A stretch of DNA of 64,000 bases from Sarea resinae (taxonomy: Eukaryota), in NCBI GenBank assembly GCA_026026165.1, contig JAPEUD010000012.1, positions 434,001 to 498,000 of the forward strand. The letters run 5' to 3'. Positions 16,942 to 34,798 of this stretch are shown here, piece by piece. The first letter of the stretch is position 1; each line of letters begins with the position of its first letter. The notes beneath the pieces were generated by a model that was not told the origin of the DNA, ran no database searches, and saw nothing but the letters and a program-made list of their open reading frames with translations. The position numbers and the translations under genes were made by a program.

Positions 16942-18669
16942 TCACATACGAGAAGTCCAAGGCCGCTCATGTATTCGAGCAGGCTCAATAGGTATCTCGT
17001 CAGATGGTGCATTTTCCAGTCCGCAATGGCAGCCCATCGAGAACAGATAACTTCTTTTCCGCACCAATCCATCAGCTTGGCTAGATCTATTCTGATCTTC
17101 TGTTTCGTCTTCCGGTCCGCCAAGCAGACCCGCGAACAGAACACTTTTCTTCTTCGCTAAGCCATCCGTATTGGCTGGTTTGCTCTGATCTTCCGGTAAG
17201 TCCTCTGGTCCGCCAAGCAGACCCGAGAAGAAACCACTTTTTTTCTTTGTTACGACGTTGGCTTGGGTCGGTCTGTTTCGCAAATTGAAGCAGCTCCAAG
17301 ATCGCGTAACCTTATGCTCGGAAGATTCTTCCGACATTGGCTTTTCATTTGAGATAGGATCCTTGCGAGAAAGATTCGGGCTTGCTCTCTCCTCGGGCTC
17401 TTTCTCTTGTGATGAACTTGCTGCTTCGGCATCCTGCGTGGCGCTCGAGAATAGATAACTTTTCTGCTTCCCGACGCTTTTAGGACGGACCGTGTTATTG
17501 CGCAGACTGAAACAGCTCCAAGTGCGCGTGACTTCATGTGCGGGCTCCTCATCTGTTGGAGCCCTATTCTTTGCAACACCACCTTCGTCCTCTGGAAGAT
17601 CAAGTCGGTAGCGTCGAACGCTACCTACATCGTCATCCTTTTCACTGTTGTAGAAAGGCCGATGACGACTATAAGAGCACCATTTCGGGGCCCAGCGAGC
17701 CCAAAAACCGCGAAACCCTCTAGTAGATTTGTCGATCTCGGCATACTCGCGCCGTCGGGTGGCCATCGACATCCAAGAGATTGTAGTGGTCGGTGCTGGA
17801 GGAGACACTGGAGATGGAGGATCGTTGTGGGAGGCCTCACTGTCGCGGTGGTGACTTAAGGTGTGATCTACAGGATGGTGAGGCTCGGACGTCGATACCG
17901 AGCGCCGTGGAGAGTGCTGACTGCTGCACACTAACCCCACGGTAGAGTGGACACCAGGGTCAGTATGGTGATGTGCAAGAGCCGTTCCCAGTGATTGGAA
18001 AAGCTGGCTGCTCTTGTAGTGGAAGGCAAGTGGGCTTTCCGAGCGTCGTTCAGAAAGATTGAAGCTGCTCCTTCGGGAGGTACTGGCAGAATTTGACTTG
18101 CTATAGATGTTGTAGGACCGTTGTCCTGAATTAGAATGCTTTGAACCTGGGCGCGAATTTGGCTTGGAAGAGGGTCGTCTGGAATATGAATAGCGACGGT
18201 ATCCGGTTTGATGACTGGTCGACGGTGGAACTGCTGGAGGAGTTTCCTTTGGTGTTGAAGTAAAAGTTGCGGATTTAGTCCTGCGTCGTCCTCGCCGGAA
18301 GTCACTTGGCAGATCACCCCTGTGTCGCAATGCCGCTTTCTGTAACAAAGGTGTTGGTGAGGTTCCCGATGACTGAGTGTGGCTCGACTCCGGGCTTGAT
18401 GTCCCTGTCCGACCATGGTCATCTCCATACCCGCTGTCCGTTCGGTCTATCCTCGCTCTTTCTGAGCTCTCAGCAGGCTGCTCTATTGCTTCATCACCGA
18501 GACTATCCGGAATCACCAATGCTGTATGAAAGGTTGTATTGGAGGGCTGATTGCGCAGTATTTCGTTGCTCCTGTGAGTGTCGATAACTAAGGAAGTATG
18601 TTTGCTTGGAAGATGCTCTCGTAGGAGTTCCTCGTGCCTGTCGGCAGGCTGATCCTCTGTTGTGGCCAT
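16942..18669 (-). CDS. Hypothetical Ser/Pro-rich protein (575 aa) with a small central motif and C-terminal internal repeats
   Basis: Uninterrupted 1728-nt ORF. The block TISWMSMATRRREYAEIDKSTRGFRGFW...FY...GSVRRYRLDL resembles a motif I recall from uncharacterised Pezizomycotina proteins. Repeats WSCFxLRN x2 and GLLGGPED x2. Confidence 0.8.
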   Translation of the reverse strand: MATTEDQPADRHEELLREHLPSKHTSLVIDTHRSNEILRNQPSNTTFHTALVIPDSLGDEAIEQPAESSERARIDRTDSGYGDDHGRTGTSSPESSHTQSSGTSPTPLLQKAALRHRGDLPSDFRRGRRRTKSATFTSTPKETPPAVPPSTSHQTGYRRYSYSRRPSSKPNSRPGSKHSNSGQRSYNIYSKSNSASTSRRSSFNLSERRSESPLAFHYKSSQLFQSLGTALAHHHTDPGVHSTVGLVCSSQHSPRRSVSTSEPHHPVDHTLSHHRDSEASHNDPPSPVSPPAPTTTISWMSMATRRREYAEIDKSTRGFRGFWARWAPKWCSYSRHRPFYNSEKDDDVGSVRRYRLDLPEDEGGVAKNRAPTDEEPAHEVTRTWSCFSLRNNTVRPKSVGKQKSYLFSSATQDAEAASSSQEKEPEERASPNLSRKDPISNEKPMSEESSEHKVTRSWSCFNLRNRPTQANVVTKKKSGFFSGLLGGPEDLPEDQSKPANTDGLAKKKSVLFAGLLGGPEDETEDQNRSSQADGLVRKRSYLFSMGCHCGLENAPSDEIPIEPARIHERPWTSRM

Positions 18670-21600
18670 CGAGTACAGTGGAAGCTATGAGAACATGATA
18701 GACTGTCGTTCCATGAGCATAATCCATTTGTCGCGGAGCTTGGATCTTACATATTGTATAAACAAGCGACACACCACGGATGTTGCTGGAAGATCCCCAG
18801 CCAATTGCTCAACCACGGCTTAATTTTCGAAAAGCTCACCGCAAGAATGTTAGGCTTGAAGAGTCTCAACAATCGACCATGCGGTGGAGAATGGCAGAGA
18901 CAGCTTGGTCAATGGGTATATTATTCGCTTCGGATTAGGCGATTGATTCGAGATCGGCCCCCTTCAAGGGCAGCAGCGCTACGTCAAGAGTAAATGGGTC
19001 TAAAGGAGAATGTACAGGCGTGGCCGGACCAGTTGTCGGAGGTTGGTCCAGTCACGATCGTCGAGATGCGTGTCTATTGACGGTTAGCAGACGGCTTCAT
19101 GCACCAGGGCGTGTAGCGAGCCGGACTACTTGGCCTGTTGCTTCTTCACCGCCGTCTCACAGGCACCTTGCGAGGCACGCTCTAATTCGACTTGGCGCGC
19201 GGGACCCCGCTGAGGAGAAAAGGCCGGTGATTAATTAGTTTGAGGACTCTGGAAGAGACAGTCAGGAAGAGAGGTCAGCTGAAGCTGATGAGGGAAACTA
19301 GAATTGATTGTCGAGATAATGTGAGTGCTGGGAGAAGTCGAGTCGAGGGCTATCGGCTGTGGATGCGATGTCATTCATGCAAGCGCATTCACACGCTGTC
19401 AATATATCTATCTTCACATGTCAAGCAGTGTATCGAAGCTGGGAGCCAAATAAGAACGGACAGGCCAGGGCATCGAATGGGGGGCAGCCAATATACGGTC
19501 GGCACCCATCCATAGCAAATGCAGAAGCAGATGCTTCAAACGGCATCGGCACCTCTTGCACCCATCTGCATCAGAGTGTCGACATGACAAGGACTGAGAT
19601 CGGCATCTGAGGCATCTGCGCCATGATTTGACTCAGTGTTTGATAGCTGGGTTGGTGGTCGCCATGGTCATTCTCATTCGCCCGTCACACGTCGAATGCA
19701 GATGATCTCGCGGCAGCACAGAGAGGTCGGTGCCGTATTCGTCGAGGACCAGAGCACCCGAGCACCAGAGCAGCTAGAGGCAGGGCCATGATGGTCGAAA
19801 TGATTGAATGTCTCGAGACCCGGTTCGGGTAGTCTAGCTCTAAGTCCCGTAGTGGCGGACTCCTCCGAGCCTCATCCTTGAACTACTGACCTTACCTACT
19901 ATGAGTACTATGAGTACTATGAGTACTAATGATTCTCTCGGGAGGGAGGGAGGGAGGGAGGGAATTGAGGCATCTTTGGCTGAAATGGCTGAACGGCTGA
20001 ATGGCATGGCTCTGTCATACGAAGAGAGTAAGAGGAAAAGCCTAGAGGCCAAAGCCCGCGTAGCCCTGATTGCTATCGGCATCGATACACATCATTGTTC
20101 ATGGAGGTGTGGAAGATGTGGAATACTCTATGTGGAAGATGTGGAATGGTGTGCTGTTCCAGAGCATGGTGTCGCCCCTCGTGGTCACGGTGGGGCCTCT
20201 CGTCCGCCTTTCCCGTCCCATGCACGCATCCACCGAGAGGTACCTTTAATCTCTCGAAACAGGGGCGCATCCGCAAGTATCCTTCCATCCACCCATCCAT
20301 CCATCCACCCACCCACCATCCGTCCATCATCCATCGAGACCTCTCGCTCGCCGCACAGAACAGCAAACGAGAATAGCGCGGCTGCATCCAGTCCGCTTGC
20401 CATCCATGCTGCAGCACCCTCCTGCATGATGCATTTGCTCGAGGACAACATCCCGACGATGCTACTCCGTACCTATGGATGATGGCTGTCTTCGGTCGCC
20501 TTTCTATGGTCCTACATTAGTAAGTCGTACATAATTGCTAACCACCCCTTTTACTCGTACCTTCCAAGAGCCCTCTCGCCCAGCCCACTGCCACGCGTTG
20601 CTCACTCCGACTTTATCGAGATCTCACCTAAGGCTTCCCGAATAAGGCAGAGCTAGGGCAAGCCAGGAACGACTTGCTCCCTAGCCCTTCAGGTACGGTA
20701 CCTCATGGTAGATGCTAGATAGACACATGTCGGTCCTTCTAGGGATCGAGCGGGGAGACCCGAAACTCTTGGCCATGGCGGCAGGATATTGGAGGAAGTC
20801 GGAATCATTTCCTCGTAGTCACTCATACCTGGATATTCTCTTTCCAGTGGCATATCATAGCCTAGACAAGCATTTCCAGCCCTCCACCTCCGAAGCGCCC
20901 CTCACCACCATGACTGCGATCAGGAGACGTGTCAATGATGGAAGGTAACACTTCCCTCGCCCCATCTGACTGTGGCCTCAAGCCAAGCCAAGCCCAGCCC
21001 AGCCCGTACGATGCGTCTTATAGCGCAGATCCATGGCGAAATTCATCCGAGGCCAAGGTCGAAAAGGCGGAGATTTGTATACCAAAGGTAATGGTCATGA
21101 GATCGCTATGGATAGTGGCTTGTCGACCTTTGGTAGCGAGAGAAGCTACCAAGCGAAGAACAGCGAATATCACGACATCGGATCACAATCACACGTGAGG
21201 AAGGGCCAAAAGCATCACCTATTTGAAGAACTGGGCTGAATCGATCACTGTATGACATGCAGCTGTCATTGTCGCCTTTCTCAGTCGTCATATCATCCCG
21301 CCCGTCTCACAAACGCAATGATCTGGAACTGGAGAAGCTTATTCCAATGCCGAGATCCCCCATCTTCATCTCTGTCGATGCCCTTCTGACACACAAGGAC
21401 GACTTTATAGAGTAATTGCGCGCATGCTTCTCGAATAGCACCTTTTCATCCGAGCTTCGTCCTAGTCAGCGGAGCGGAGAGACTTCTTCCCAGTCCCCGT
21501 GATGGACCCTGAATGGCTTCCTGGGAGTATCACGACACCCCCAGCACGTCAGCAACTCTGTAAAGATGGGCGCGGCTGCTGCTGTGACTTGTACCTGTCA

Positions 21601-22948: not shown

Positions 22949-25002
22949 TCAGAGCCTGTACGAAAATTCCGGATTCTCCCCATCCGTCAGATCCAGCCAT
23001 TCCTGGTTTTCCAACTTGACATAATGCGGCTGCGCTCTAAACGCCGCTTTCTTCTTGTTCTGCCATCGATAATATAGATAGATGAGCGCCAGGTCGCCCA
23101 GACATGCACCCCAGCAGCATATGATCGTGATCTCGGCGGGCACGTATCTGGGTGCGTCCTTGGGCCGGAAAGTCTGCGGGCCGATGATGTTGCCGGCGCA
23201 GTAGAACATCATATAGATAGCGGCCACGGTAGTCTTCTTCGTGTATCCCGCCACATTTGTTGAGATCAGTGAGAGTAGAGCCACGAACGCCGTCGGGGAT
23301 GCTTGCGTGAGGTAATACCCGCCCAAACGGCCCGAGTTGTTTGACAGGGGCAGCGCGACGATGAGGATCATGCCGAGGATTGAGACGATGAGCCCAGACA
23401 TGGAGATGAGGATTCGGTGGCCGTAGCGATCGCCGAGCCAGCCGCAGACGATCAGTGTTACGACTTCGACCGCGCCGCCGGGTGTGCCGTATAGGAGAGA
23501 TTGTTCGGGTGTATAGCCAAAGGACACAATAAGTTGGCTGAAGAAATTAGAAATACCGCCTGCGCATACCGTAGCATCAGTAGTGCCCACTCATAAAACA
23601 CAAAAATGGGTGATATTTAAATTAGGAATGAGATTACTGACCATTAGGGATATCAGAACAAATAGCATAAAATGCGAACGCCCAGGTCATGGGGTCGAGA
23701 AGACACTCCTTGAATTGATACAGTTTCCAGTGTTTGTTTCCCACGCCCTGTTCATTGATTCTGATACGTTCAATTGCAAGAACGCGATCTTCCTTACTTA
23801 ACCAGCGTGCGTTCATTTGGTTGTCTGGCATGACAAGTAAGAAAATCACCCCAATCGCTACAGTCAGGAGGCCTGTAACAAGGAAGATGATCTTCCAGGG
23901 TGCAATAGCGGAGCCATGCAGACGCGTGCCTTTGGCTATGCCGTAGGCTATCAGTCCGCCGAAGATTTGGGCAAAGCCGTTGAAGCTAAGGCCAAGGTGA
24001 GCTTCGGTGCTTCACAACAGTGTGCACTGAATATTGCGTGATTTCTACATACCTGAACCAAATGCCTGTGCGTGTCCCTTGTTCTTGCTTGGTATACCAC
24101 TTACCACTATCAGCCACGAGCGTATAGCACGTTTCTCTCGGATCTTACCTGAGATGTGAACAACACAAAACCAGGGGTAACTGCTGCTTCAAAGATTCCA
24201 AGGAAGAATCGAACAGCCAGAGCGCCAGAATAATTGTCTACCGCCGCCATACAGCATAGTACAGCTCCCCACCTAGTCAACATCAGCCACTTTTTCCATT
24301 GCCAAATACGGGAGAGGCTACATTATGATGTTGAAAGATGACCACTTTGCCAAAGGAAGTCTCTGTAGGAGGCGATTCGTTGGATATTCCCAGGCAAGAT
24401 ATCCTGGGGTGTAGTCAGTATGATATTTTATATCGACGACGTAAGGTATCCAAATACCAAAGTAGAACATAGACCTTTGAAGATAATCGTTAGCTCAAGC
24501 TTACAAAAGATTACAACCAAGCATACCCCAGCCACTGGTAGTCGTCTCCTTTCAAGTGTATATCCTTCTTGATTCCCATAACACTCGCATACGACAGCGT
24601 TGTCTCTGCAATTCCCCAATGTCAGTTACCCTTTCTGAAATCACAGACGTCTAGAACGGTTCAGCATACTGTCAAGATAGTTCAATCCATAGATAACGCA
24701 AAGGAGCTGCGAAGAATTCAGGCCTCTGTCAGTATTGTGACGATTAATCTGATTCTTAAATTTGCCAAACAGAGTCAGAGACACACAGGCATTAAATTCC
24801 AATCAATCTTTCTCAATAGTCGTCGGCTCGTAGCTTCATCAATCTCGATCACTTGGCCCTCATATGATCCAATGGCTTTCAGCGCCTCATCGGCATCATG
24901 CGCGTGCTTCAAGAGCTGCGCCGGCACGACATCCTGCACCAATTCCGCGGACGCTGATTCCTTCTCCGGATCTGCGTTCTGGGGGATCTTCTCGTCGGCC
25001 AT
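22949..25002 (-). CDS. MFS transporter, anion:cation symporter / allantoate permease (Dal5-like) family
   Basis: 9 exons, start MADEK at 25002 (the track start at 25023 is a TTG). Motifs LLRKIDWNLMP, LNYLDKTTLSYA, GYLAWEYP, RFFLGIFEA, WYTKQEQGTR, NVAGYTKK, GNIIGPQTF, DLTDGENPEFSYRL. Includes a 17-nt micro-exon at 24474-24458. Confidence 0.94.
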
Positions 25003-25778
25003 GGCTGGCGATAGCGATGACAAGTGATCCTGATGGGATTAATGAGCGAGTGAAGCTCATCAGCATAAGAGGTTCATTAGCAGAAGAACATGTTCTTGGA
25101 GGATGATTCCCCGTCTGCGCCATGCCGCATTCGTTACACCAACGGCAATCACGAAATGCCTACATATAATGACTGATTGCAGATAAGGTGTTCGGCGATA
25201 CCGGGGACCCTGGACGGTGTTTATCAGCTGCATACCCCTACACGATTCGGTCATATCGATGCTATCATTGCCATTGACGAGTAAAGGACCCAGCACCTCT
25301 GCCGCGGTCCCCCACCGAACGTTCGGAACGGCGATCTCCATGTGGCTCATAGAACACTTGGCCGGGCTTTGGCATGTCGGCAATCCACAGTCGCACCTAT
25401 CGAGAGGAGAGAGGGGGAGGAGGCATCCATGGATAGAGTAGAGTTACTCGATGTGCTTGTGCTCGTTTCCTAGAAAGGAAGGTGCTTACAGTACTTTGTA
25501 CCTGATGATAGCATACCTAGGTATCCATCCATTGATATGATAGGGTGTGGGATACGGGATACGAATTATGTAAGGTAAACACAACAACGGCAATCATTTT
25601 CGTCACTTCAGATGAGCCACAAGAGCACCTCGTCCTCCTTTATTTATACAATACCTCTGGAAGACCAACAATTCCCCATTCGATAAATTAAATTCAATAC
25701 AGGATCAATATCAATACAGAGTAGCAAGAGAAGAGAATATGAAGTTTGCCACCACTCACTCGTATGGGCGAATCTATG

Positions 25779-28094
25779 TCAGCCTTCCTCAAACACGGGT
25801 GTCAATCGAACACCGCCAAACGACCATCCTCCCACGAATTCGTCCGTCTCAAACTTCTTATTGATTACGATCCCTAACGACCCATCCAGTCCGACTTCAA
25901 CAGGAATGTCTCCCGCAACTTCGAACCAGCCCTTTCCCTTCTTCTGTCGGTATCGTCGGCGACCAAGGCGTACTCGAACGGCATTTGGGTGCATCAGTGC
26001 TGTGACAACGTCGGGAGTGATTCGAACGTCTAGATAGCGTTGCGTAAAGTTCGACGGATCAAATGGTCTGCCTGCCGAGAAGATCAGATCTGTCGGCGGA
26101 CTGACGATCGGCTTTTCCTCGCTACTGTTGCCATTGCCGTTTGCTGCTCCTTCATCCGTGACTGTGAATTCGGCCACTCCATCATCGTCAAACATCCCAG
26201 TCGGAAATTGGATGGGAGTTGGCGGAAAGGATCGTGTAGATAAGGAATTTGTGTCGTCATCAGCGCCCGTTTGCACGTCAAAAACGGAAAGAATGAAATG
26301 GACGTTGTATTTGCCCTGCGGAATGCCGGTCCTGAGTAATCGCAGGCAGATGTTATCCGCACGCACACAGGTTGTAACTACCGCTTCTTGCTTCTTTCCA
26401 TCGCCATCGAGGTCCTCAGCAACAGGATAGATCTTTCGGACTCGTCCTAAGGTGTCAACTTCCAATCCGCCCCTTCCAGAGGGACTGGTAGACCGTAATT
26501 CCTGCACGCTAGTGATATCTTCCGGCGAGACTTTCATGCCTAGCGGGAAGCCTGTTTTAAAATCAAGTTCTTCGTTCAGGAAACACTGGATGTTAGGAAA
26601 CTTCGGGTCTCGGTGTAGCAGTCCCTTCCCGTCGACCCCGACTCTGAAATTCGCAGCCCCTATCTCAACCTTGGGAGGTAAAGCGCCGAACCTGACCATC
26701 AGCTCCGCCACCCTGCTAGATCTGCGGATCTGCCGAGGCTCGTTCATGTATTGTGCAGTAAGAGAGCCCATCTCATTTTCTTTCATATATTCTTCTAAGG
26801 ATATGGCGGCCATGCCTCTGTCCACGTCAAATCGAACGTACTCGGTATGCGATTTAGAATAGGTCCTCTGCATTTCGTTGTCAACTCGAGCTGTGGAGGT
26901 AGCCATGCTCACGAGAGCAGAGGCCAGTGCTACGTCGTGCGAGAGCCCAAAAGGAAGCGGTATAGACTTCTGCACGGACGGAATGGACTGAAGGCCTTCT
27001 CAAAATCAGCACATGTAAAATTCAATGAAGCAGGGTATCTACCGGTCCCGACAGAAACAATCAATCCAATAGATCGCTTGGGCCACAGCGACGAAGCAAT
27101 GTAAGCAACCTCCTCACTTGGATTGTTGAACCCCACACCACCATCTAGATAAGTCATTCTAGGCGTGCCGAAAGTCATCTCCTCGAAGAAGGTTGGGGCT
27201 GCTGAAGTAGCGCGTAAAGCTTCCCATATCTTGGTATTGTGGTCGTTTGCATCGTAAGACGAGAATATGCGAGGTACTCCGAGGGCATTCTTCATGGTCG
27301 AGACGACGAAAGCTCGACATCCCCTACAATGTTCGCGCATGTGCACGGTATCAGTCCGGTGAAGTCTCCAAGTCGAACTCCTCGCGACTGGATTTCCGAT
27401 TGGATCAGTTGCGGCGTGTGAGATGTGACCATTTCGATGCTTTCCGGTTTTCGAGGACTTTGAAGCAGTACCATTGTCCAAGAGCTTTGCAGTTGAGACT
27501 CCGCTTGGGCTCCTTTGTAAAGGCGAGTTTGTGAGGGGAATCTCTCCTGTATCAGTCCATATCGTCTCTCCTGTTTCCTCCACCTCTTCGAACAGATTAT
27601 CGTCCCATAGAAGCTCATCCTCCTTGAATCCTAGCTTCTTCAGCGATTTCTTGATAGAGGCTTCCAGCACGGCGCCCGAAAAGCGATTGGGTCCTATAGG
27701 CAGCTTGGTACCAAATATTTTGATGCTCCTATCATGCTTGAATATCTCTTCAGATAGTTCGGCGTAGATTTTGATGCAGGTAGGTACGTCTTGGCGGAGC
27801 CGGCCAAGTAGAATCGCAATAATGCCACCGGTGGATGTCTGTCAGAGTTAGAGAGGACCTAGCACATGCAGACAAGTTGCTACTCACACCGCCGATGAGA
27901 TCAAAGTAATCACAAGGCTTCAATGCCGTGCTGTCGTTTTTTGGTCTCTTGTTTAATCGCTTCTCTTCGTTCGCAATCTTCTCCATCACCTCTCTCAAAA
28001 TGAGCAAGCTGGACAGGCCCCTAACCCCACCACCATCGAGAGACAGCAGCCGCAATGGCGCCACAGGATTGCGTTGCTCCTCCATGCGTTCCAT
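25779..28094 (-). CDS. Patatin-like phospholipase with about 300 aa C-terminal extension
   Basis: 3 exons (introns about 27887-27839 and 27042-26996). Oxyanion motif LSLDGGGVRG, nucleophile elbow GTSTG across splice 1, ALRATSAAPTFF, catalytic DGG (YLDGGVGFNNP), VSVGTG. Confidence 0.92.
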
Positions 28095-29117
28095 GACGTC
28101 TAGAGGATATCGGGAGAAACTACCGAGAATTGGGAGACTTTCTGAAGGTCAAGCAGCGGCCTATATATCAGTCATTGGGATTCAGGGAAACGGAAGCAAG
28201 GTCGATCAATGCGAAGAGAGGGTCTTCCATTTCATCATGTTATGTACATTGGTCAGAGAGGCAGCCTCGGGGGCCATTACTCAGTGGAAAGACATCCTGG
28301 GATAAAGAGCACCTCGCTCAGCCTTGGTGGTCGGCGGCGGAGAAGATACGTAAGACCTGAGTGGTCACACAAGCGCCCCAGGGGGGTACTCATAGTACTC
28401 CGTATGCAATTTTAGGCTGCAACCCCGGGGGCTGAAGAGCCAACACGAAGACGGATCTCATAGCCTCTTTCTTGGGAACTGTAAGACGCCTCATGCTTCT
28501 CGCCATGAGTAATCCTCAAGTTCCATCGTGAAGCAGGAGCGCATGACTAGAGAGGTAGAGCCCAGTAGGTGAATCATGGCTACTCAGGTAGGTTGCCTAC
28601 CTTAAGGTAAGGTGTTAGGTAGTATTGACGCCGGGAGCTGACAAGCGACACCAGTTCGCCCTCATGTTCTCCACTGCGATCAGTATCTCGGCCCGGTTGC
28701 CGCTCGGCCCCCATCAAATTCAGGGTTCAAAGTAGGGTTCAAAGGCTCCAGCTCGCAGGACAGAACCGAGCGGGGATGGGCCAGCGCTCAACATGATTGG
28801 CATCTCATTCCAGGTTGTCTACATCGTACAGCCACCACGAGGCCGTACTTTTAGCTCGATGAGAATTTCCAGCTCGCTGACCCATCAGCCCAACCATGAC
28901 GGGTCCTAAGAGATATGCTTCCTTTCTATGTGGGCAATTCCTCGAGTCTGCAATGCACAATAGAAGACTTCGGTTGGTCATGGCGATAGAGCAAGGCCGC
29001 AAGAGCAGCATACGGCCCCCCGCTAAGGCCAAACACCATAAACAACCACTTTCTCTCTCTAAAATGATATGTCTAGTGTTGCGGCTCTAGGATCGGCCAC
29101 CATCAACTCAATCGTCC

Positions 29118-29813
29118 TCACGCCGCTTCCCACGAATCAGGCCTGGCAAATCGCCAAACGATCGCATCTTGAAAGCCCAGCAGAGGCGAGTTGAAAGCCC
29201 TTTCTCTCCGCTCCACGAATCGAAATCCAACTTTCTGCAACACATTCATGCTCTTCTCATTGTCCGGATATGTCTGTGCCTCCATGAAATCGAACCCTCC
29301 CTCTGCCTGTGCCGAAGGGACTTGTCGGAAGTAGTAGGGTAAGAAGGCCCTCAGAGCCTCAGTGGCATATCCTTTCCCCCAATAGTCTGTATGGAGACAA
29401 AACCCCACGTGTGGGATCATGGGTGCGGCAAGGATGCCAATCACTTTCATTTTGTCATTGTCCTCTGCGATATCATCTCCTTTCGCCGTCTCGGCATCAT
29501 CGTGTCGCTCCTCGATGACGAGGGTGAACGCCTGGCCGTTGCCGACCCGCTCCAGCATATCGCCTATCCAGACTCTGGCATCCTCGAGAGTAGTGGTTAA
29601 AGTTGACCTAAGGTGGACATAAGCACATAGTGGCTGGCGTTCTTCTATGCTTGCACGGCATCTCAGATAGGCTATGGTGCTCTCTTACGATGTTCTCAAT
29701 ATGGGTTCCAGAGACCTTATCGTGTAGATTTCCGGGAGATCTTTAGGGTGAATGGTGCGCAAGTGTAGCCTTTCGGTAAGTATAACAGCATTCTTGTCCT
29801 GAAGGTGGGCCAT
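29118..29813 (-). CDS. GNAT N-acetyltransferase, RimJ/RimL type
   Basis: ATG at 29813, exon 1 MAHLQDKNAVILTERLHLRTIHPKDLPEIY..., one intron (about 29688-29608), then VGFCLHTDYWGKGYATEAL and NEKSMNVLQKVGF. Confidence 0.92.
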
Positions 29814-31021: not shown

Positions 31022-32565
31022 TTCGCTTCAATCACTTTGTTGATGAGTCGAATTGTACGGAGGATGGGTGGGGAAAGTAACACAACTTTGCTCGCAGCAA
31101 GCTTTTTGAGACGTGTTTTATGATGAAGACAATTACAGAGGCGTTGCTGTTTGCTTCATTGTTTACCACCTGAGCTATAGTACCTACTTAGCTTGTTTAC
31201 GTGAACATGTGCACGAGGAGAGAAGTTCCTCTCTTTTTCTCTCTAAGTTGGGGCAGCAGTTGTACACAGATGAAGGGCTGCTTCCCGTTCCGAAAATGGC
31301 AGTCGTGCTTCACTTTTTTCTGGTCGATCTCTACGTTTTCTTGCGCCTTGGTATGCGTGCACAACTCATAGCAATTCATGTCAACAAGTAACTAGACAGG
31401 GCTTGGGTGACCAATTCCCTCTTCCCAAACTTGCGTCATCTGCTCTCGCGACCATTTCTGTTTACCACATAATTGCACAGCAGAGACGACCTCTTCACTA
31501 CGTCAAGATGCAAGCAAGCAATCACCGTTCCAACAACTATTTTCCTGTGAGTGTTATTGCCCAGGTATTGAGGCTTCCGAGGTGTTTTCGCCCATCATGC
31601 TGTCCAGGACTCTGTGCTGCTGCCACTCATTACAGCACATGATCCTGGCAAAGCAGGGATATCATATGTCGCCAGCCGATAGGCAATCAAACAATCCCCT
31701 CAATACACGAATGACTGACAGAGCCGACAGCTCGGAGGAGCACGGTGATACGCTCAGGCGATTTGGCGGACTTGACCAAAATCTACTCTCTCCCACTCCG
31801 CAGTTCTCTCCACCATGTAACTCAATGGGCAATGCAGATCCGTCATTGTCGACTCGAAGAGCAATCAAGCCTTCATGACGATGCTTTTACTCGCAGGCGG
31901 ATTTCTGCACCTGAACAGCACCATGACCTGCATGATACCCGCTACGATGTCCTGAAAGATTTAGCAAACCACAAGATGGGAGACAGATGGCCACGCTCAC
32001 TTAGGGTAAGGAATGCTTGTCCCCCGCTCTGCGAACTCAGCTGGCAGCATTACTTTGCGGTTGCAGCTTAGGCCACTGATCGAGCATGCTCTCCTGTACC
32101 TATAGTCAGCATCGTAGTACGACACATACTTGACGAGTCGATCTCCACATAAAGGAGCACCGAGGTCTTCGTCAATTGACTCGTTCGATTGCCTCATTGG
32201 ATTTCTCATGCCTATGCTGTCTTTGCCTGCAAAAATTCGAGATAAGGAACAAGTAGTACTATATCACAATATCACTGAACCTCTCGAGTACTCCCTAACG
32301 AAGATGATGAATATTCCCTTCCGAGGCCATCATTCACCCCCCCCATAGGCACAGTCGCCGAGAGAGTCCAAGCCACTACGTCGCTTCCATCTATAGTGAT
32401 GCTGGCGCCTATCTCCGACCTGATTCACGCGCATTCGAGCGAGCCACGAATCGGCCCTTTTACTACAGCCGCAACACCCGGCGGTCGCATCATCATCGAC
32501 GCAGCAAGCTGGATGCAGGGGGGGAGGCGGAATCGAAGCTAGACGAACCGAGCTTTGGGGAAACG

Positions 32566-33387
32566 ATGGCAGCAACCTTGGATGGCCTGAGACGAGCTTC
32601 GGACTTTTACTCCCGTTGCAAGCTCGACTTTGACAAGGAGACGATGGGGGTCAGAGGCTATGCCGATCGCGAGATCTTGGACCAGTTGTGGATACTCCGT
32701 GCGAAGACTTTCGGGAAGAAGGACAAGCAACAACAGCAAGGAAGTCATGGGCTTTGCGGCATGGGAGAGGAATTGCTCGATCTTCTGACCCACGCATCGT
32801 TCGTTTCAAAGCGAGAAGAGCAACGTCAAGCCGAGAGGAGAGATGTGCGAAAATTTGGAGACTATTTGGAGACCTATCATCTTTTTGCGAAGGAGTTGAA
32901 GAAGGCGTCTCAGGCACTGGCAGCTTTGATGCCAAACGCGTGCATTCTTCGAAGAGATATCCCGCAATTGGGGAAAGGACTCAATCAGTTGCTAGCCATT
33001 CTCGAGAAAGGCCAGGATGTCTGGTCGTACAAAGGTGATAGAGATATGTCTCGAGGGAAAGGAAGAAAGCATGTGGCTGGACGGCAAGCGGGGAACAGGG
33101 GCCCCGGGAATGAAAAGAAGTTGAACGAACAGATCCACGCCCATGGTAGTTCGCAGAATGACCTGTTGGAAGAAAACTGGGAGGTGGAAGGGGCGGAAGG
33201 CGATGCTGGCGGCTGGAACAATGACGGCACTGACTGTGATGATCAGGGACATGGAGATGAACATGGCGAAGCTGGTGATCTCGAAGAAGACGGCGAAGGC
33301 CACAACCCTTCCGAAGCGGAAAAACAATGCAAGTCCACCTATATTTTGAAACTCGGATGCCACGAAGATAATGCTAAAGGGTTATAG
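32566..33387 (+). CDS. Hypothetical protein with helical core and acidic C-terminal tail; 5' end uncertain
   Basis: 273-aa ORF. The same frame stays open upstream to about 32311 without an ATG, suggesting upstream exons. Confidence 0.55.
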   Translation: MAATLDGLRRASDFYSRCKLDFDKETMGVRGYADREILDQLWILRAKTFGKKDKQQQQGSHGLCGMGEELLDLLTHASFVSKREEQRQAERRDVRKFGDYLETYHLFAKELKKASQALAALMPNACILRRDIPQLGKGLNQLLAILEKGQDVWSYKGDRDMSRGKGRKHVAGRQAGNRGPGNEKKLNEQIHAHGSSQNDLLEENWEVEGAEGDAGGWNNDGTDCDDQGHGDEHGEAGDLEEDGEGHNPSEAEKQCKSTYILKLGCHEDNAKGL

Positions 33388-33476
33388 GGTGATGACATGG
33401 CTACCTCCACGGGTGAACCATATCACGAGCGTGGAAAATGCAGGGATCTTTCATAGTTTACGACTTTCAATGATAT

Positions 33477-34798
33477 TCAATTTGTTAGGCCTGGCCAATC
33501 TATACGGATAAAAATTAGTGTGCAGGCCTATGAGGAGGCTTGTAGCAGACTCACCAAATACAGTTCTCTCCTCGTTGTGTCGTGTTACATTTACCTCATC
33601 ACCCACCCTTATATATTTAGCGGCGTCTCCTTCCTTTAAGAAGCCATATCGACCGAAAATCGGGCTATACTTCGTCCCCTTATCTACCCGCCGATCCCGC
33701 ATCAGCAGCTTTAATACCTTTCCCGCCTCACCGGTCCCAGGTTTTCCTGTCTCATAGTCGATGTTGATGCTTTTGCATCGAGCACAATTATGTGTGAGAT
33801 GGATAGTGACAGTGTTGTCTGGCACGCCAACCGTGCTGCCCTCTGTACTTTCTTTCCTTCTTCCGCCTTCATTCATTCCGCCGTTGCAATCACTTTTTCT
33901 TAAGAACTTAATTTCGCCCCAAAAGTCCTCCTCGAATGCGGCTGAGGCCCCCGAGACGATGATATTTGGTCGAAACTTGCGGATGTCCATCTCTTGGTCT
34001 TCAGGCAGGCGCGCTGAAACGCTTGCTAGCGACGTCTCCGATACGACGAGGAGCTGGGCACAGTCTGTGAACGTAAGGTCATCTTGCTTTGTCATTTCGC
34101 CGTTCACAGTGTTTGGATAGCGCATGAATGGAATTGAGTCGGTAAAGCTGGAGAGCCACGAGGATCCGCCGCTTTGTGATTTTTTGGTTGCAGCATTGGG
34201 CGAAAGGGTCCCCAAAGCTTGCCGTCTGTTGGAGCCTATGTATGCTAGGATGACTTCATATCCTAGGCATGATGAGAACCACGCATTGTACTTATCGCTC
34301 ATGTTGTACGCCACGGTGGGGCTCTTGTGCATCGTCACTTCCAACTGCCCCAGGCTAGCTAATTGAGGCTGCAGAGGCACCTCTATTGATTCCGATGTCG
34401 GTTTAGAGCCTGGTGGCTTATATCTCAGGACAATCTTCCCATCAGTCGCTTTGGCAGAGCTTGGGAATTGGATGTCTGTGAGAAAAAGCGCTAGGTCTGG
34501 GAATTCGGCGATGTGCATATTTTCTAGTCGCCGTTGCGGCTTTCCCTGTTCATCATACTCATCATGCACTTTCAGCAGCATAAACCTTCGGTCGTATGCG
34601 AGTCCCTGTTCCGAGAGCTGGGCTTGGCTGAGCGGGACGCCTCGGAGGGCTTTGATGGGGTAGGTGTAGATCTGGAGGAAGAGTCTCTTCGTCAGTCTGA
34701 TCACGACGCCATGAGGTTCGGGAGACGGGGAATATCGAAGACCGTGGAGATATTACCTGACTGATCTTCATGATGGGAGAGCTCTGGCTGGTGGGCAT
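33477..34798 (-). CDS. MOSC-domain protein (mARC-like molybdoenzyme family)
   Basis: MKISQ|IYTYPIKALRG across intron 1 (alternative start 34771), DRRFML, KFRPNIIVSG, EEDFW, conserved Cys in NCARCKSINIDY; final exon DWPGLTN* after a 3' intron. Confidence 0.92.

Follow-up and report, generated by a model that had tools for sequence, protein, structure and literature searches.

Regulated cell death and immunity in fungi are discussed mostly in terms of receptors of the NOD-like kind (NLRs; NOD, the domain for nucleotide binding and oligomerization), in which an effector domain is followed by a NOD and by repeats. The locus described here raises the question of what stands in the place of these parts when a patatin-type lipase lacks them. 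It is a gene at 25779..28094 on the minus strand of a 64,000-nucleotide stretch of the fungus Sarea resinae (the window; contig JAPEUD010000012.1, positions 434,001 to 498,000). An earlier note, made from the letters of the window, had read the product as a patatin phospholipase with a C-terminal tail resembling the PP2/Nictaba domains of plants. We reconstructed the gene, modelled the tail and a relative of it, compared both models with known structures, and followed the domain through its family. We found that the gene joins a patatin lipase to a domain that models as a PP2-like jelly-roll, and that in a sister clade domains of this type are attached to other enzymes.

A patatin lipase and its tail in one gene

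The exon structure was determined by a scripted trial of all nearby exon boundaries, in which one GT..AG model reproduced a database protein. The spliced product, running from an ATG at 28094 to a stop codon at 25779-25781, is identical, letter for letter, to P0001 (739 residues, 100% identity), which belongs to a Sarea resinae assembly and is annotated there as hypothetical. All features of the gene given below are on the minus strand. Exon 1 (27888..28094) encodes residues 1-69, and exon 2 (27043..27838) extends from residue 70 to the first base of codon 335. Intron 1 (27839..27887; 49 nucleotides, GTGAGT..ACAG) splits the nucleophile motif GTSTG after G69. Intron 2 (26996..27042; 47 nucleotides, GTAGAT..GAAG) lies at a junction across which orthologues read ..GTGLQ.IPS... 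By frame reading and the splice model, exon 3 (25779..26995) holds both the post-catalytic segment of the patatin half and the entire PP2-like domain. Its frame of 405 codons is uninterrupted from ..LQSIPSV..MATSTARVDNEMQR.. through the tail to the stop, and 13 orthologues from several fungal classes align colinearly over the patatin/tail junction. Because exon 3 is one frame with no stop between the two parts, and because the orthologues are colinear, the tail is in the same gene as the patatin half.

Patatins are recognized by an oxyanion hole of the form G-G-x-R/K-G, a nucleophile motif G-x-S-x-G and a catalytic aspartate in D-G-A/G. All three motifs were present in the protein, and each was invariant in 13/13 full-length orthologues. 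Much of the tail was invariant in the same alignment as well, which is more conservation than chance would produce. Translation placed the oxyanion-hole motif DGGGVRG (residues 20-26) at 28017..28037, the nucleophile motif GTSTG (residues 69-73, with Ser71 as the nucleophile) at 27827..27890 around intron 1 (G69 at 27888-27890, TSTG at 27827-27838), and the DGG motif of the catalytic aspartate (residues 301-303) at 27137..27145. The Pfam family Patatin (PF01734) matched residues 17-311 (27113..28046, with intron 1 inside the span) at 81.4 bits, against a gathering cut-off of 27.7 (E 1.3e-22), and was the sole Pfam family on the full protein. Within this domain there is a variable, low-complexity insert of about 100 residues (141-244; 27314..27625), 13-39% identical to orthologues as compared with 58-82% in the catalytic halves; it may be a disordered regulatory loop. 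The segment that follows the catalytic region (residues 337-436, ..MATSTARVDNEMQR..; 26691..26990) is conserved, with 50-66% identity to orthologues.

Among proteins of solved structure, the closest in sequence to the patatin half were bacterial CapV (E 3.2e-11), of the cyclic-oligonucleotide-based antiphage signalling system (CBASS), while potato patatin ranked next, at E 4.3e-6, and iPLA2-beta after it, at E 2.5e-4. Phospholipase effector models of PADLOC matched at 116 bits (E 5.4e-34), a likeness and not a sign of a role in defence, because the PADLOC library contains defence proteins only. We found no match to the Walker A pattern G....GK[ST] in P0001, and Pfam searches of the full protein at E up to 1 returned no NB-ARC, NACHT, TPR, WD40, ANK or other repeat family. 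The highest hydrophobicity average over 19 residues was only 1.33, so that the protein has no evident membrane span or signal peptide. Judged by its sequence, the gene product is predicted to be a soluble patatin-type phospholipase A of the CapV/iPLA2-like kind. Two claims of the earlier note, an intact catalytic set and the absence of an NLR module, are thus borne out, and every string that it quoted was located in minus-strand frames within 25779-28148, with the coordinates verified by translation.

Fold of the C-terminal domain

The tail domain spans residues 437-738 (25785..26690); it begins near 26690, upstream of the start at 26600 that the earlier note had given. We modelled it with AlphaFold from an alignment of 32 sequences. 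The result was a single beta-rich domain with a mean predicted local distance difference test score (pLDDT) of 82.1 and a predicted template modelling score (pTM) of 0.82, in which two loops (model residues 68-74 and 165-181) had low confidence. A Foldseek search of the Protein Data Bank (PDB) placed hinokiresinol synthase first (8jmr/8jmq, E 2.8e-4), an enzyme that we take to be a member of the PP2 family. Next came the cucumber PP2 lectin (7yaq, E 9.1e-4) and, below it, Nictaba (8ad2, E 2e-3); two glycoside-hydrolase chains were interspersed. When the Foldseek candidates were re-aligned, ranks 1-8 were all hinokiresinol synthase, PP2 lectin or Nictaba, at Z 9.9-12.6.

A fold search that was independent of Foldseek, against 48,161 representative PDB chains, gave the same families at the top. 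Hinokiresinol synthase (8jmr_A) ranked first at Z 12.6, with 155/171 residues aligned at a root-mean-square deviation of 3.2. The cucumber PP2 lectin (7vs6_A) ranked second (Z 11.2, 138/148 aligned) and Nictaba (8ad2_A) third (Z 9.9, 138/165 aligned), ahead of an unrelated carbohydrate-binding module (CBM; 7zvo_A, Z 9.6, 128/131 aligned).

A relative served as a second test. P0036 (257 residues), linked to the tail of the window protein by phmmer (E 7.5e-11), was modelled with a pLDDT of 86.6 and a pTM of 0.86. Among the Foldseek matches listed for it, the first 11 were all PP2-family structures (E 6.5e-8 to 6.8e-6), and the first from outside was the Skp1-FBG3 complex 3wso_A, with the FBA domain of an F-box protein (E 1.5e-4). 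Against the 48,161 chains, PP2-family structures took ranks 1-3 at Z 13.0, 12.8 and 11.3 with 16-18% identity, and the next fold stood at Z 9.8. Language-model features of P0036 pointed in the same direction: their score was 0.95 against clusters from plants, 83-100% of whose members carry PF14299, the Pfam PP2 family, 210/256 features were shared with PF14299 clusters, and 21/30 matches belonged to that family set.

On these models, the tail is very probably a divergent PP2/Nictaba-type domain, with a core of about 150 residues expanded by loops. The pairing of patatin and PP2-like tail proposed in the earlier note agrees with the lead of the PP2 family in the fold searches for both proteins, and the AlphaFold and Foldseek check that it had suggested yielded a PP2-like jelly-roll and not an unrelated fold.

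Two motifs lie near the C-terminus. Within GKGWFEV (residues 688-694; 25917..25937), the two clades described below share an invariant G690 and W691, and GGWSFGGVRLTP (residues 723-734; 25797..25832) was recognized from the translation and the family alignments. A third feature is specific to the clade of the window protein. The loop DLDGDG (residues 529-534; 26397..26414) is the only match to DxDxDG in P0001, and DxDxDG is a form of calcium-binding loop. D529, D531, D533, G534 and E538 are invariant in 13/13 orthologues, the sister clade lacks the loop, and the region is modelled confidently (mean pLDDT 93 for the block of model residues 91-100). The motif makes the loop a candidate Ca2+-binding site. 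A poorly conserved insertion (residues 575-632; 26103..26276) is gapped in 7/12 of the other aligned sequences and is partly disordered in the model, residues 165-181 of which have a pLDDT below 50.

The best PDB matches of the two fungal models, Nictaba (8AD2), Cus17 (7VS6/7W4B) and hinokiresinol synthase (8JMR), represent the plant PP2/Nictaba group (PF14299) and have the same jelly-roll fold. Nictaba-type domains of plants are nucleocytoplasmic lectins, and in Arabidopsis they lie C-terminal to F-box, TIR or AIG1 domains (PMC5767604). The window protein resembles them in both respects: its PP2-like domain also stands C-terminally behind an enzyme or signalling domain, and the protein, in which neither a signal peptide nor a transmembrane segment was seen, is predicted to be cytosolic. 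It differs from the plant domains in that the structure-based identity is only 8-18%, that loops stretch the fungal core from about 150 to about 300 residues, and that the domain is fungal, fused to a lipase and below the PF14299 threshold. The sugar site of Nictaba includes Trp15, Tyr21, Val39, Trp41 and Trp151 (PMC11632377); the earlier note had seen no evident Trp-rich sugar-binding motif of this kind in the fungal tail.

Relatives, partner domains and possible function

We searched for relatives in several ways. A search with exon 3 for longer relatives, in which 8,000 candidates were scored, found 16 proteins of 718-1538 residues at E up to 0.001, all with PF01734 and 42-61% identical over exon 3. 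Thirteen of these are the orthologues aligned over the patatin/tail junction. The sources named were Xylona, Chaenotheca, Bathelium, Trypethelium, Lindgomyces, Patellaria, Stemphylium, Curvularia, Aulographum and Morchella. An exhaustive phmmer search with the last 306 residues against 1.84 billion representatives returned only 40 matches at E ≤1e-3, 20 at ≤1e-10 and 11 at ≤1e-30. Two of the phmmer matches, P0039 (with FG-GAP repeats) and P0041, were excluded from the alignments as motif or low-complexity matches. At their sources, the annotations of the family are hypothetical protein or 'FabD/lysophospholipase-like'.

Profile searches with the domain alignment extended the family and revealed other partners. 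Patatin fusions were many; P0040 and P0049 are patatin fusions of the sister clade described below. In P0060 (Drechslerella, 563 residues), PNP_UDP_1 (E 7e-8) lies N-terminal to the PP2-like domain, and in P0069 (Colletotrichum, 677 residues) this position is taken by an alpha/beta hydrolase, for which the source annotation lists PF12697 and which scores just below the cut-offs of Abhydrolase_6, DUF676 and PGAP1. None of the patatin, PNP_UDP_1 or hydrolase fusion proteins scanned with Pfam had a NACHT or NB-ARC domain.

The domains were compared in a quick maximum-likelihood tree of 50 of the 61 sequences, with support from the Shimodaira-Hasegawa-like approximate likelihood ratio test only, a midpoint root and a careful search left unfinished. 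Eleven sequences without the end-motif pattern were omitted (P0013, P0023, P0028, P0057, P0063, P0064, P0066, P0067, P0068, P0074 and P0079). The tree has two clades, each with a support of 100. The clade of the window protein contains 32 rows, namely 29 patatin fusions and 3 fragments. In the sister clade, 18 rows are interleaved: 2 patatin fusions, 1 PNP_UDP fusion, 1 hydrolase fusion, 2 unassigned proteins, which group with the hydrolase fusion (support 98), and 12 short proteins. The domain has thus changed partners within the sister clade.

Two groups of family members have unusual lengths. P0036, P0043, P0057-P0062 and similar proteins of about 250 residues come mostly from contigs of 1-6 kb, and for this reason we do not claim free-standing forms; these apparently free-standing proteins may be the last exons of longer fusion genes. 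P0011 (1129 residues), P0012 (1538 residues) and P0013 (1270 residues, with Aminotran_1_2 at residues 887-1233) far exceed the usual length of about 730 residues, and probably result from the merging of gene models, not from genuine fusion.

The partner enzymes have a common association. Patatin, PNP_UDP_1, DUF676, PGAP1 and Abhydrolase_6 are all among 19 Pfam domains found at the N-terminus of fungal NLRs, and the accessible text of the same source (PMC9815663) contains none of the terms PP2, phloem and lectin. The small family described here thus comprises three NLR-type effector enzymes in which a PP2/Nictaba-like jelly-roll replaces the NOD-repeat part; because the module occurs with patatin, PNP_UDP or an alpha/beta hydrolase, it would fill the place of NOD and repeats in fungal NLRs. 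We found no description of a fungal patatin-, PNP_UDP- or hydrolase-PP2 architecture in the literature searched, in which subscription journals were thinly covered.

What might such a protein do? The earlier note had suggested a sensor-effector protein with a role in immunity or cell death, and the swapping of partners in the sister clade lends this circumstantial support. By analogy with known systems, we give an even chance to a sensor-effector lipase in which the jelly-roll is a ligand-binding control module and the patatin is the output. Once the PP2-like domain had bound its ligand, the lipase would be recruited to membranes or set free, and Ser71 and Asp301 would then hydrolyse phospholipids, damaging or remodelling the membranes. 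Candidate ligands are a glycan, by the precedent of the plant PP2 lectins, or a protein, by that of the BH lectin fold of Podospora, and Ca2+ at the DLDGDG loop may aid the binding. The protein would be a two-part sensor-effector without a nucleotide switch.

Three known systems share parts of this design. PLP-1 and HET-Z1, patatin-NB-ARC-TPR NLRs of Neurospora and Podospora, have in common with the window protein an N-terminal patatin with an intact catalytic set. The window protein differs in lacking NB-ARC, Walker A and TPR and in having the PP2-like domain in their place. Cell death by PLP-1 requires patatin activity, so that a fungal patatin can execute regulated cell death (PMC12881547). 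CapV, which is the closest solved sequence to the patatin half and is activated by cyclic GMP-AMP in CBASS, differs in being bacterial and of a single domain, with a cyclic-dinucleotide switch and no PP2-like tail. In BH of Podospora het-B, an NLR-type effector domain is joined straight to a lectin-fold domain without a NOD, as here; BH differs in its HET/TIR-like effector, in the fruit-body lectin/actinoporin-like fold of its second domain and in being highly polymorphic. The HET and lectin-fold domains determine het-B incompatibility and cell death in Podospora, with the lectin fold setting specificity toward a protein and not a sugar (PMC10890737 for both points on BH). Because the HET-lectin architecture is already known, the general idea is not new. 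If the sensor-effector reading is true, the family would join HET-lectin (het-B) as the second architecture known to pair an effector with a lectin fold and no NOD, it would be linked to the TIR-PP2 and F-box-PP2 proteins of plants, and it would raise the questions of what a cytosolic PP2-type domain senses and whether ligand alone switches on the patatin lipase.

The most serious alternative is that the gene encodes a housekeeping regulated phospholipase, active in lipid remodelling or signalling, whose jelly-roll serves only membrane- or Ca2+-dependent targeting. A precedent is cytosolic phospholipase A2 (cPLA2), in which an N-terminal C2 domain, a beta-sandwich, docks to membranes in a Ca2+-dependent manner. 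Like cPLA2, the window protein combines a lipase with a beta-sandwich module that could dock to a membrane with Ca2+; unlike it, the module is not N-terminal, has another fold, and no C2 family is found on the protein by Pfam.

Several observations favour this alternative and weigh against a role in recognition. In the clade of the window protein, 29/29 full-length rows are fused to patatin, the branching looks taxon-like, and the clade is conserved from Morchella to Dothideomycetes at the identity over exon 3 given above. Across fungal classes the tail retains 44-67% identity, a moderate drop from the 58-82% of the catalytic halves. Uniform fusion, conservation of the tail and taxon-like branching together suit a conserved cellular lipase better than a fast-evolving recognition gene. 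The invariance of the DLDGDG loop is also consistent with a targeting function, and the neighbouring genes are ordinary: those for an MFS (major facilitator superfamily) transporter, a GNAT (GCN5-related N-acetyltransferase) enzyme and a MOSC protein show no obvious connection with the lipase gene and no hint of defence.

Other observations do not fit a housekeeping enzyme. This is a small family, with 40 clusters at E ≤1e-3 among the 1.84 billion representatives, and there are no yeasts or Eurotiomycetes among the source names given, which argues against a core function. In addition, NLR-type effector enzymes replace one another as partners in the sister clade, and the patatin half scores higher with defence-effector models than with Pfam (116 versus 81 bits), a weak point given that PADLOC holds defence proteins only. 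Taken together, we consider a housekeeping lipase possible though somewhat unlikely. If the protein is one, the results would still provide a fold and a family name for proteins now listed as 'hypothetical' or 'FabD/lysophospholipase-like'.

The sensor-effector reading can also be widened, at a cost in probability. PP2-like jelly-rolls might be an unrecognized cytosolic recognition module common to plants and fungi, and the fungal proteins NOD-free, single-chain immune sensors; we regard this as unlikely. Plants would put the PP2 module behind TIR, F-box and AIG1, and fungi behind patatin, PNP_UDP and a SesB-type hydrolase. The jelly-roll would detect a misplaced cytosolic glycan, such as chitin fragments or glycans of damaged endomembranes, or a non-self protein, and detection would directly fire a membrane-destroying lipase.

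Other readings of the tail and the surrounding genes

The assignment of the tail itself has competitors. One is a generic galactose-binding-like or CBM-type jelly-roll, the resemblance to PP2 being convergent or too ancient to be meaningful. Z scores of 8-9.6 against the window model are reached by many CBM, Eph ligand-binding and Cry domain III structures, and Nictaba, at Z 9.9, is tied with generic jelly-rolls at Z 9.6. The tail of the window protein has no Pfam match at E up to 1, leaving the PP2 cut-off of 25 bits unmet, and its language-model features reach no more than 0.83, to unnamed bacterial or malectin-type clusters. Weak Pfam PP2 matches occurred in 6/49 relatives scanned (3/28, 3/14 and 0/7), at E 0.0087-0.081 and 13.3-16.5 bits, and no scanned relative attained 25 bits. 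In 5/6 of these relatives the match extends to the C-terminal end of the profile (up to position 146-148 of 148), ending on GGWSFGGVRLTP. Families that are surely unrelated recur at comparable levels (MDM10 in three of the relatives, DUF2931 in two), and we therefore rejected the weak PP2 matches as stand-alone evidence.

Searches by sequence against the PDB and for plant PP2 relatives were similarly uninformative. The tail, used as a single sequence and as domain alignment A3, gave matches to PDB sequences at chance level only (3so2_A, E 0.48; 2dby_A, E 0.16). A second alignment, A2, retrieved patatins only, because it carried patatin columns. A word-indexed profile search with A3 found no plant PP2 relatives, a result of little weight because the search needs shared words of five residues.

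The structural comparisons point away from a generic jelly-roll. PP2-family structures hold ranks 1-3 among the 48,161 chains with both models, and with P0036 they stand about 1.5 to 3 Z above the next fold. The Foldseek E-values of P0036 are more than 20-fold better than those of the next family, and its language-model features independently point to PF14299. We therefore judge a generic jelly-roll to be quite improbable.

A second competitor keeps the PP2 fold and changes its function. The tail could resemble hinokiresinol synthase in using the PP2 fold for catalysis or for binding a small molecule, which would make the protein a bifunctional enzyme on an ester or lipid-like metabolite. In its favour, the top structural match of both models (Z 12.6 and 13.0) is this enzyme and not a lectin. 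However, it is ahead of the PP2 lectin by 0.2 to 1.4 Z, within or near the tie range of the tool, and the sister-clade partners (patatin, PNP_UDP and alpha/beta hydrolase) have no common substrate. The chance that the tail is such an enzyme appears very slight.

Sarea resinae is a resin-dwelling species, and hinokiresinol synthase, the best structural match of both models, is a plant norlignan enzyme. Because orthologues are found in many fungi of other habitats, we regard the correspondence between resin habitat and structural match as a coincidence.

Lastly, it is extremely unlikely that the fusion is an annotation artefact in which a false intron merges two adjacent genes, as might be supposed because the introns lie outside the RNA contigs (25690-26505 only): exon 3 by itself, a single 405-codon frame, carries the entire tail as well as the conserved end of the patatin region, uninterrupted by a stop, the 13 orthologues from several classes are colinear, and the separate gene for the 3' exon that the earlier note had allowed for is thereby contradicted. 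These RNA contigs, from one metatranscriptome run, are 95-99% alike to the window, and because introns and patatin exons fall outside their coverage they neither confirm nor question the splice model. One contig skips 48 nucleotides at 25841-25890, which reads as GT..AG on the plus strand. The skip would be an in-frame loss of 16 codons (residues 704-719) of the minus-strand gene or an antisense splice; its shorter side spans no more than 26 letters, and another contig covers the place without the gap.

Five neighbouring features were noted. Two open frames matched no Pfam family at E up to 0.001: a Ser/Pro-rich frame of 580 residues at 16942-18684 on the minus strand, and one of 358 residues at 32311-33387 on the plus strand. 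The three annotated neighbours are all on the minus strand. They are the fragment of an MFS_1 transporter at 22949-25038 (Pfam E 1.5e-8), the GNAT acetyltransferase (Acetyltransf_3) at 29118-29684 (Pfam E 1.1e-18) and the MOSC/MOSC_N protein at 33451-34752 (Pfam E 1.9e-20).

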